Of a DNA stretch of 15,373 nucleotides, positions 1-3,000 are shown piece after piece. The stretch is from a virus (Duplodnaviria > Heunggongvirae > Uroviricota > Caudoviricetes), in the IMG/VR virus record IMGVR_UViG_2667527592_000004, positions 1 to 15,373 of that record; one strand, 5' to 3'. Numbering within the stretch: position 1 is the first letter of the stretch; the number at the start of each line of letters is the position of its first letter. The position numbers are program-made.

Positions 1-3000
1 AGAGCAGTCACGGAGTAAAACTGATACCGCCAAACGTCACCAGAAAATTGATAACAGAGGGCGTTGCAGCGGGGTTGTCACTTAAGCGTATGGTCAACCT
101 GACAACCCGGTGTCCTCAACGGGGAAGGAATAACCCCGCCATACTTACCGCCGCGCCATTTTGCGGGTTGCCACAACCGGAAGCGCACGGTCGAATTAAA
201 TTTAACGACACCGTACAGTGAGACGAACTTCGCCGTGCGCTTTCGTGTTGTGTGCCTGCTTTTAACCACGTCAGGCGAGGTGGTTCCTGTTATTCCCCAA
301 CAACAAGAAATTTGTATAATCCGGATATCCCCAACAACGAGAAGAGTATGTAACGTGATAGTTGAGTTCTCAGCAGCAATGTCAGCAATCAAAGAAACTG
401 CGGTAATGGCAAAGGGCATTCTGAATGCCAAAACTCAAACTGAGATAAATTCCGCTGTCAGCGATATGCTTTCAAAACTTACGTCTGTTCAGTTTGAATG
501 CGTATCGCTCATTGAGATGGTGCGCTCTTATCAGGAAGAAGCCGCATCTCTCAAAGCAAAAATTGCAGAGATAGAAGACTTTCAGCAACAGGCGGAAGGT
601 TACAAACTTAACAAGCTTGATTCTGGAACTCTTGTGTATTCCAAGAAGCAATTTATAGGCGATACTGAGATAACAGTGCATCTTTGCCCACAATGTTTTG
701 GAAAAAAGGTAATATCTGTACTTCAGCCAATGGAAATAATGCGCTTTGATGCTCATTTTCGTACTTTTTGCCCCGCTTGCAATAATAAGTTCTGGATGAA
801 CTCAAGATAATTAACCGTTTAAATAAGTTGGGACTATCCAGATTTTTAAAGAACGTGCCGGATGCTCACCCGTGTCCGGCGCACGCACTCCACCTGACCC
901 GTGGAGAACTCCTTAATTACCAACCTTAGCTTCGTTGGTTAGCTATTAACGCGGGTATGTAATCATTCTGGCAATGCTTAATGCCGCTGCTTTTTCCAGC
1001 CTGGTGATATCCTGCTCCAGAGCGGACAGATTTTCAGCCTGCTTAGTCCTGGCTTCATTGGCCCATTTCAGGTCCTGCGCTGCCATAATTTTCTGGCGCA
1101 TCCACTCATAAAGTTCATCATCGGTATAGTCTGGCGCGATGATGACAGGTTCTCGTTTCTGCATACTGATTCCTCGCGGTGCTGCTTCGCTTATCAGCCG
1201 TTAGATTTTGCCGAGCTGGAAAGCGCCTGTTTAAACTCACTGAAGCTGAGAGCTTCTTCGCCTTCGGCAAGGCCTTCGAAGTATTCTTCGTAAGCCTTTT
1301 CCATGATTGTGTCGAAATCCATATCACTCACCTGAGTTTCTTTCCAGCCAGCGACGGGCACCATTTTCGGTTTTAAACGTTTTGCTTTTGGTATACGTCA
1401 TCGCGGTGAATGTGCCGTCCTGGTTGGGAAACACGCCGTACACCAGAGATTCGTTGTTGCCAAGATCGATAGTATCCATGTTGACCTCATTTCCCCTTAA
1501 CGCCGGGGTAGCGGAACAAAAACCTGCTGCATAGTTATTAAAGTTGAACCCTGCCGTCATGTTCTTACGCCTCGGGCTGGCTACTTAACCCCTGACCACT
1601 GCCTGGTAACTCGAAGTATTGCCCTGCATTCTGTGGGGCGGGGTGGGTTGGTATGTTGTTAAGGTAACAAGAGTTACCTTTCGAGTCAATATAATGTTGC
1701 AAAAGGTACATTTGAGGGCGTAAAAAACCCGCAATGAATGCGGGTTCTGACTCAGTCTAAGTATTGATGTATTTGTGAAACTTTACCTTTAATGGTGTAA
1801 CCACCATTCAGTTCGATGGGTTTGTAAAGCGGATTCAGTGACAACAGATAGATGTTTGGTCCGTCAATCGCAACTTTTTTTAGTGTTACGTTTGGCGTTC
1901 CTTCCAATTGGATTAAGATTATTTTTCCCACCAGTTCTCTAATGTTACTTGAGCATGGTGTGATCAGCACGGTAGATCCGTCGGGGATGGTTGGGAGGCC
2001 GTTAGAGTTTGTCATCGCATCTCCCTCAACATGCAATAAAAAAGAGTTTTCAGCGGTTTTTGTCATGACATCAACCCAATTCTTAATACCAGGAATCTCG
2101 GTTACTGGACAACTCATATCCCAATAACCAGCCTGTTCCCACGTTAAAACGGGCAACCGGGCGATGTTGTCACTAATGTAAGGGTACTGATTCAGACGCA
2201 GATCATCGGTTTTATCGTGACCATCCTTTCCATAAAGAATCCATTCAGGAGATTTGGAAAGCAATTTTGACAGTAGATGCAAATTCTCACCGTCAGGTTT
2301 TGAAGAGCCATTTTCCCATTTTGTTACGGATACACGAGATATGCCGATTGCTTTCGCAACCTGCTGTTGGGTTAATCCAACGTCTTTTCGACGATTCCGA
2401 ATACGTTCGCTGATAGTGTTTTTCATGTAACCAATGTTACTACCAAGTGATGTTGCTATGGTTGACATTGCCATGTAACTATTGTTACCCTCCTGCTCGA
2501 AATAACAGGAGAGTTTTATGTTCAAAGATGATGTTCTGCGCTATTTCAAAAAAAAGCGACTAGTAGCTGAGGCTCTTGGAATTTCACATGTGGCTGTTGT
2601 GCGGTGGAAAGCAGTTATTCCCAAACTTCGCGCAATGGAACTGGATGAAATTACTAACGGTGAATTGAAATACAACCCAGAACTTTACAAGAAGCAGGAT
2701 AGCACCTCGAACGAAGGAAAGAATGATTCATGAAAATCAAGCATGAACACATCCGCATGGCGATGAATGCCTGGGCGCATCCGGACGGCGAAAAAGTACC
2801 GGCTGCGAAAATTATCAAAGCGTATTTCGAGCTGGGAATGACGTTCCCGGAACTGTATGACGACAGCCATCCGGAAGCCCTGGCTCGCAATACTCAGAAA
2901 ATTTTCCGCTGGGTGGAGAAAGACACCCCTGATGCGGTTAAAAAAATTCAGGCGTTGTTACCAGCTATCGAAAAAGCAATGCCACCTCTGCTGGTGGCCC

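Follow-up and report, generated by a model that had tools for sequence, protein, structure and literature searches.

The window analysed here, a stretch of 15,373 nucleotides (nt) of viral DNA (Caudoviricetes; IMG/VR record IMGVR_UViG_2667527592_000004, positions 1 to 15,373), carries on its plus strand a gene of 151 codons whose product is probably a divergent Rip1 (ring interacting pore 1) protein, one of a family of single-protein, prophage-encoded abortive-infection defences; its own activity and trigger are putative. The protein is labelled “hypothetical protein” in public records, and its gene is best described as a divergent, so far unannotated member of a known family rather than as a new kind of system. 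The gene and the parts of its product, given in amino acids (aa), are the following:

355..810, plus strand: Rip1-like coding sequence, 151 aa, GTG start, stop codon included (from the listing of open reading frames (ORFs), homologue alignments and the match to PDB 9oox)
355..594, plus strand: N-terminal helical region, aa 1-80 (from the secondary structure of the AlphaFold2 (AF2) model)
595..807, plus strand: C-terminal beta-rich domain, predicted zinc ribbon, aa 81-151 (from AF2 strands and four cysteines)
685-696 and 769-780, plus strand: the two CxxC knuckles, Cys111/114 and Cys139/142, respectively
730..768, plus strand: hypervariable loop between the zinc knuckles, aa 126-138 (from column entropy)

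The assignment is carried by a profile search and a structure prediction, the two computational checks proposed in an earlier reading of the sequence (the original prediction), and both led to the same PDB entry. A profile built from an alignment of 50 homologues of the window protein matched chain 9oox_L, “ring interacting pore 1 (Rip1)”, practically over its full length (E 9.6e-18; query residues 5-152 against residues 15-160 of the 164 in the chain); according to its title, 9oox shows the T6 small terminase with HK446 Rip1 bound to it. The AF2 model, with a mean predicted local distance difference test score of 90.6, has helices at residues 2-23 and 28-80 and then a beta-rich domain, and when it was compared with the PDB by Foldseek the only significant matches were 9oox_M and 9oox_L (E 2e-7, probability 1.00, template-modelling scores 0.64/0.75). 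The relationship is also visible in direct comparisons: pairwise BLASTP against HK446 gp37 (YP_007111990) aligned 141 aa at 23% identity with one gap (E 1e-10), and tblastn with the window protein retrieved HkaP of phages HK620, HK629 and HK630 (30% identity, E 6e-13) as well as homologues in the Pseudomonas phages JBD30, DMS3, MP38 and D3112 (25% identity, E 3e-9). In the joint alignment of the window family with HK446, HK620, 689R2 and JBD30, the invariant residues are the four cysteines C111, C114, C139 and C142 together with Y83, V94, Y95, L123 and Q124.

The window protein has 84 homologues at E<=1e-3. An exhaustive profile search extended this set to 2483 cluster representatives at E<=1e-3, with 736 at E<=1e-10, and the best 150 of the 2483 are mostly proteins of 140-180 aa that match end to end. 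On these matches the window protein can be placed in a large superfamily and, more narrowly, in a distinct small subfamily that has 18 representatives at E<=1e-30. It also matches PHROG 1244, whose function is unknown (E 6.5e-47). In Pfam, NCBIfam and PADLOC the matches were all sub-threshold, to SLATT_5, DnaJ CXXCXGXG, TerY_C and zinc-ribbon models. SLATT_5, a SLATT effector with two transmembrane segments, was rejected as a candidate on its scores (17.1 bits against a cut-off of 29.5 in Pfam, 17.9 against 60 in NCBIfam) and on the lack of any hydrophobic transmembrane segment in the window protein sequence; PADLOC v2 gave only a marginal match to a reverse transcriptase-associated SLATT (E 0.005). 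SieB, Rex and other named exclusion or defence families gave no match at E<=1 in the Pfam scan.

The primary description of Rip1 is that of Patel et al. (2026, Nature 651:1060, doi 10.1038/s41586-025-10075-1), taken here as summarised in PMC13434031, PMC12908700 and PMC13601566. According to these summaries, Rip1 is a single-protein, prophage-encoded antiphage defence, demonstrated experimentally, that is not toxic when present alone and has homologues widespread among proteobacterial prophages. Twelve Rip1 monomers are described as encircling an 11-mer terminase ring, with the C-terminal half of the protein touching the ring and the N-terminal amphipathic helices forming a pore; dye leaks from liposomes, cells are perforated and the infection is ended prematurely (PMC13434031, PMC12908700, PMC13601566). 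Phages that escape Rip1 are reported to carry mutations in the portal if they are Pseudomonas phages, or the small terminase if they are E. coli phages (PMC13434031).

The original prediction had placed an opposite-strand gene at 379-810. The gene is real, an intact plus-strand ORF, and the end at 810 stands, but the start has to be moved from the ATG at 379 to the GTG at 355. This start was chosen because the N-terminus MI(A/V)E(F/L)SAAM.AIKET, corresponding to V355-IVEFSAAM in the window, is kept in all full-length homologues; because a GTG is found at the matching position in 16 of 19 aligned upstream regions (the remainder have TTG or ATG, and in SfIV the gene is a different one) and, among the matches listed, at a constant offset from the conserved leader described below in 56 of 76 viral contigs; because the copy of a Klebsiella phage has an in-frame stop codon immediately upstream of its ATG; and because PGAP, the NCBI annotation pipeline, picks the start equivalent to GTG 355 in strain FORC_082. 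Longer versions, namely a 191-aa ORF from the GTG at 235 and the 242-aa annotation in PhiR29_1, were rejected as over-extensions. Among the window, PhiR29_1 and Kp4882-1 copies, substitutions fall on codon positions 3, 1 and 2 in a ratio of about 50:36:16, a pattern that indicates purifying selection on the Rip1-like coding sequence. The ORF is therefore read as coding, and not as a chance frame, on the basis of this bias, the 84 homologues and the PHROG 1244 match. The minus-strand ORFs lying inside the gene at 472-756 and 653-805 were dismissed, since the substitution pattern fits the plus-strand frame.

The description of the product as a coiled-coil-like protein ending in paired CxxC motifs was borne out, as the protein consists of two N-terminal helices, one of them very long, and a four-cysteine zinc-ribbon domain. 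By analogy with Rip1, aa 1-80 are presumed to be the membrane- or pore-forming part and the zinc-ribbon domain is presumed to be the sensor contacting the ring. Residues 1-25 are the most conserved part of the protein (column entropy 0.66); many of them are small and moderately hydrophobic, and their hydrophobicity profile resembles that of the HK446 Rip1 N-terminus. The loop between the two knuckles has instead a mean column entropy of 2.71, compared with 0.66-1.16 for residues 1-125, and in the alignment it differs among homologues in both length and sequence. This loop is a candidate specificity determinant, its variability being what would fit a target-recognition surface under diversifying pressure.

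From the family, a mode of action can be proposed for the window gene. A lysogen would produce small amounts of the protein, driven by the leader of its own cassette, and the protein would be harmless until a superinfecting phage produces its ring proteins, either the small terminase or the portal. The zinc-ribbon domains of about 12 monomers would then dock around the phage ring, a step that draws support from the inter-knuckle loop because this is the most variable part of the protein, as expected of a specificity surface. Docking would gather the conserved N-terminal helices into a membrane pore, and the pore would permeabilise the inner membrane and abort the infection before progeny mature. 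For the window copy we infer expression in lysogens, trigger, oligomerisation, pore formation and antiphage phenotype alike by this analogy. The original prediction had guessed, from the orientation only, at an exclusion or conversion function expressed in lysogens; homology to the Rip1 defence backs that guess, but the mechanism would be a late-acting abortive infection through a pore and not classical entry exclusion.

Several points weigh against this reading. The protein shares no more than 23-30% identity with any Rip1 that has been tested, and the trigger, or even the activity, could differ. The Rip1 mechanism is taken here from one review, one meeting report and the title of a PDB entry. 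The hydrophobic moment of the N-terminal region is moderate (0.16-0.39), a value compatible with a pore-forming segment but by itself not indicative of a membrane-active helix. A consensus scan found neither a consensus sigma-70 promoter nor a strong intrinsic terminator for the cassette. Finally, the gene is dispensable in at least some lineages, because a frameshifted allele of it is widespread in E. coli O103:H2.

The low identity to tested proteins would also suit a protein that has kept the Rip1 fold but serves another role, such as a different kind of superinfection exclusion or a part in the prophage's own packaging or lysis timing, its zinc-ribbon domain binding ring proteins of the resident phage, and the homologues of Pseudomonas phages do lie between terS and terL, within the packaging module. 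We consider such a change of role unlikely. HK446 Rip1 and the JBD30-type homologue, at about 31% identity, are roughly as divergent from each other as either is from the window protein, and the function is reported to span Pseudomonas, with portal escapers, and E. coli, with small-terminase escapers (PMC13434031); for these reasons conservation of function at 23-30% identity is likely. Moreover, the conserved motifs and the full-length collinearity are kept, and an antisense stand-alone cassette, lacking in most related phages, is typical of accessory cargo (“morons”) and not of core genes. The antisense placement recurs across the family, in HK446, HK620, JBD30, PhiR29_1 and at least 5 of 19 Enterobacterales loci, and supports the assignment to Rip1.

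The frameshifted allele has a 1-nt deletion in the run GCCAAAAC, at window position 428, and occurs in E. coli O103:H2 strain 12009 and many other genomes. For this allele PGAP calls an N-terminally truncated product of 114 aa, which is recorded on at least 1000 contigs. The deletion is a predicted natural loss-of-function allele, common in O103:H2, and its abundance raises the question of whether the gene of the window prophage is itself a decaying remnant devoid of function. This appears improbable: the window copy keeps an unbroken frame of 151 aa and every invariant residue, the identical protein is present on 22 contigs and close intact variants on hundreds, and the pattern of substitutions across codon positions points to purifying selection. 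Taken with the cluster of the truncated allele, the protein's own 90% cluster has listed members on well over 1000 contigs of E. coli. The two clusters bear no label other than “hypothetical protein” apart from one JGI label, “predicted nuclease with TOPRIM domain”, which is spurious and unsupported by any profile or fold search.

The Rip1-like gene is the only gene of a cassette of about 600 bp (window ~253-854) that, by alignment with phage Tritos, which shares the same backbone, replaces about 45 nt between dicF and ydfC. Phage Tritos has no cassette, nor do most related phages; of 5426 complete E. coli genomes, 59 have the cassette in full. Among complete E. coli genomes, coverage of the window as a whole does not exceed 57%. 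The parts of the cassette outside the coding sequence are:

253..354, plus strand: conserved leader of ~105 nt, with ~85-90% DNA identity across genera
294-304 and 328-338, plus strand: two TCCCCAACAAC repeats in the leader, 34 nt apart
315-320, plus strand: TATAAT, between the TCCCCAACAAC repeats and 16 nt after TTCCCC
811..854, plus strand: cassette 3' tail; a weak hairpin of 3 bp and a T5 run lie at 831-847

The leader, presumed to consist of a promoter/operator and the 5' untranslated region, is conserved from the left edge of the cassette up to the start codon, where the conservation ends. It contains the inverted repeats GCCTG/CAGGC and CCAC/GTGG, a -10-like xxTAAT between the TCCCCAACAAC repeats and a purine-rich GAGAAGAG before the GTG. 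Its identity of ~85-90% holds in Izhakiella, Kluyvera, Edwardsiella, Symbiopectobacterium, Enterobacter, Kosakonia, Citrobacter and others, genera across which the Rip1-like protein is only ~50% identical. The leader is absent from HK446, HK620 and JBD30. Two other explanations of it were tried and rejected. As a structured cis-regulatory RNA it gave, with RNAalifold on 17 leaders, only -5 kcal/mol and no covariation, and Rfam returned no match to it, the window matching only DicF and, below threshold, a Trp leader. As a pL/OL operator region it would have to be reconciled with its being kept among phages with differing repressors and with its having travelled with the gene into the dicF-ydfC site.

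The leader is not confined to Rip1-like genes. In SfIV it precedes an unrelated gene of 144 aa (gp36), and at least 120 loci came up when viral contigs were searched with 20 nt from its core. Among the matches listed, the next ORF is Rip1-like in 76 of 120 loci and other cargo follows in 44, gp36-like in 6 and something else in 38; most of these 38 have an ORF of 26-52 aa, behind which, in the loci inspected, comes a predicted two-transmembrane protein of ~150 aa. One of the loci with small-ORF cargo shares the dicF-ydfC backbone of the window. Pfam returned nothing for the alternative cargos, and PADLOC nothing beyond a marginal match. Overall, the leader resembles a portable module for expression that occupies a hotspot of cargo. 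It is possible, although we put it forward tentatively, that the Rip1-like gene is just one of the interchangeable cargos that this module drives in different temperate phages; the leader would then be the signature of a family of defence cassettes, expressed in lysogens, that had not been recognised before. The invariable antisense placement within a lytic operon, pL-type or late, could also double as a self-silencing switch: on induction, convergent transcription could shut the defence off, so that the prophage's own terminase and portal rings would fail to trigger it.

The surroundings of the cassette are as follows:

1..45, minus strand: DicF small RNA, truncated at its 3' end by the window edge (58 bits and E 1.7e-11 to Rfam RF00039)
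946..1164, minus strand: ydfC, convergent with the Rip1-like gene (PHROG, Pfam and RefSeq annotation of near-identical loci)
1194-1364, minus strand: ydfB (same basis)
1324-1560, minus strand: ydfA (same basis)
1752-2525, minus strand: cI-like repressor with helix-turn-helix (HTH) and S24 domains (PHROG and Pfam)
2518: P22-Cro-like gene, divergent from the cI-like repressor
12439-13398, plus strand: Shiga toxin 2-type A subunit gene, 319 aa (Pfam RIP, E 1.3e-29)
13411-13674, plus strand: Shiga toxin 2-type B subunit gene, an ORF of 87 aa following the A gene

The minus strand near the cassette is a dicB operon of the Qin/Rac type, and phage Tritos has an annotated DicF at the corresponding place. 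As the original prediction had it, the Rip1-like gene is transcribed against leftward genes, ydfC, ydfB, ydfA and the cI-like repressor all being on the minus strand; the cassette lies about 200 nt upstream of DicF in the leftward transcript, and therefore the DicF/dicB transcripts would read antisense through it. The DNA of the toxin region is ~91% identical to the stx2k/stx2c operons of Shiga toxin (Stx) phages, and the window is taken to be part of a Shiga-toxin-type lambdoid prophage because it contains these Stx2-type genes.

In PhiR29_1 and at least 5 of 19 representative Enterobacterales genomes, the homologue is antisense, with early-left genes on one side and a full-length cI-like repressor on the other. 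This slot between the early-left genes and cI is the niche of rexAB in lambda. No match to ydfA, ydfB, ydfC or dicB was found in the 19 homologue genome loci; because none of these loci has ydfC, ydfA or dicB, dicF-ydfC is a second insertion site, seen in E. coli.

These data bear on a further explanation, in which the cassette acts chiefly in cis or as a regulator, with convergent transcription or a nucleic-acid-binding zinc ribbon modulating DicF/DicB. The cassette lies indeed on the opposite strand between ydfC and dicF, where leftward transcripts to DicF/dicB must cross it, zinc ribbons often bind nucleic acids, and some of the weak sub-threshold matches of the window protein are to zinc-ribbon regulators. 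We hold this role to be highly improbable. With a cI-like repressor beside the gene in at least 5 of 19 loci and ydfA, ydfB, ydfC or dicB in 0 of 19, the gene is not tied to the operon; its coding sequence appears to be under purifying selection; and the homology to Rip1 is far stronger than that to any regulator, with no DNA-binding family above threshold. A defence gene of the Rip1 family remains the preferred explanation.

A few other features of the window were recorded. By alignment with phage Tritos, the right-hand junction between cassette and backbone lies at ~854-859, and between the cassette and ydfC three successive hairpins follow (~855-882, 888-907 and 919-939), which are part of the backbone and recur in phage Tritos, where the cassette is missing; on the plus strand of window 855-940 no T-run follows them. 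Candidate roles for these hairpins are processing or termination within the dicB operon. The Rfam match to the Trp operon leader, at 1719-1812 on the minus strand, is sub-threshold (24.9 bits against a gathering score of 41). This stretch, just downstream of the cI-like gene, ends with a GC-rich hairpin and a U-run and most likely represents no more than the repressor gene's intrinsic terminator. Further along, two accessory-looking regions were noticed: an HTH and cupin regulator (5340-5942, minus strand) divergent from a B3_4-domain protein (5986-6681, plus strand), and an HTH and Peptidase_M78 (ImmA/IrrE-like) protein (8250-9395, plus strand) with an unassigned 204-aa ORF ahead of it (7639-8253, plus strand).

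The link to Rip1 would give a testable function to more than 1000 contig records of a “hypothetical protein”. Being carried by an Stx-type prophage, and with a truncated allele common in O103:H2, the gene could affect which phages, other Stx phages included, superinfect these enterohaemorrhagic E. coli pathogens. The subfamily, with its conserved N-terminal half and hypervariable loop, could serve as a natural panel of variants for mapping the choice of trigger by Rip1, and the leader shared with alternative cargo points to further lysogen-expressed genes at the hotspot.

Among the known systems, the classical lysogen-expressed abortive-infection genes of the immunity and early-left region are RexAB of lambda and SieB of P22 and lambda. 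The likeness of the window gene to these is one of niche and of strategy, the infection being aborted by a prophage-encoded product directed at the membrane. Two proteins make up Rex, SieB is an integral membrane protein, and the Pfam scan at E<=1 gave no sequence relationship of either to the window protein.

Closer relatives are found in Pseudomonas phages. JBD30 gp30, the DMS3 homologue and D3112 orf25 share with the window protein full-length homology, identical invariant residues and a position antisense to the flanking operon. Unlike the window gene, these genes, JBD30 gp30 among them, have the small terminase gene on one side and the large terminase gene on the other; the phages are transposable and Mu-like, and the site is in their late region. 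Phages of the JBD30 type are reported to be the kind in which Rip1 was discovered. For Pseudomonas phages, escapers are reported to map to the portal and not to the small terminase (PMC13434031). HkaP of HK620 is the best match among isolated coliphages outside the subfamily of the window protein and belongs to a different subfamily. It is annotated in the GenBank record of HK620 as a “putative superinfection exclusion protein”, and its gene is antisense in the pL operon, an arrangement like that of HK446 rip1.

HK446 Rip1 itself differs from the window protein in sequence (23% identity), in an N-terminal extension of 10 residues of its own and in the loop between the knuckles. In the pL operon its gene has N and a ral-like gene as neighbours, where the window gene has ydfC and dicF, and the conserved CCCCAACAAC leader found at the window gene is absent from it. 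Nevertheless, the two proteins are close in size (164 and 151 aa) and collinear over their full length, both combine N-terminal helices with a C-terminal four-cysteine beta domain, they have the VY, (S/T)(I/V)LQ and CxxC...CxxC motifs in common, and each is encoded by a lone gene lying antisense within the leftward early operon of a lambdoid phage.

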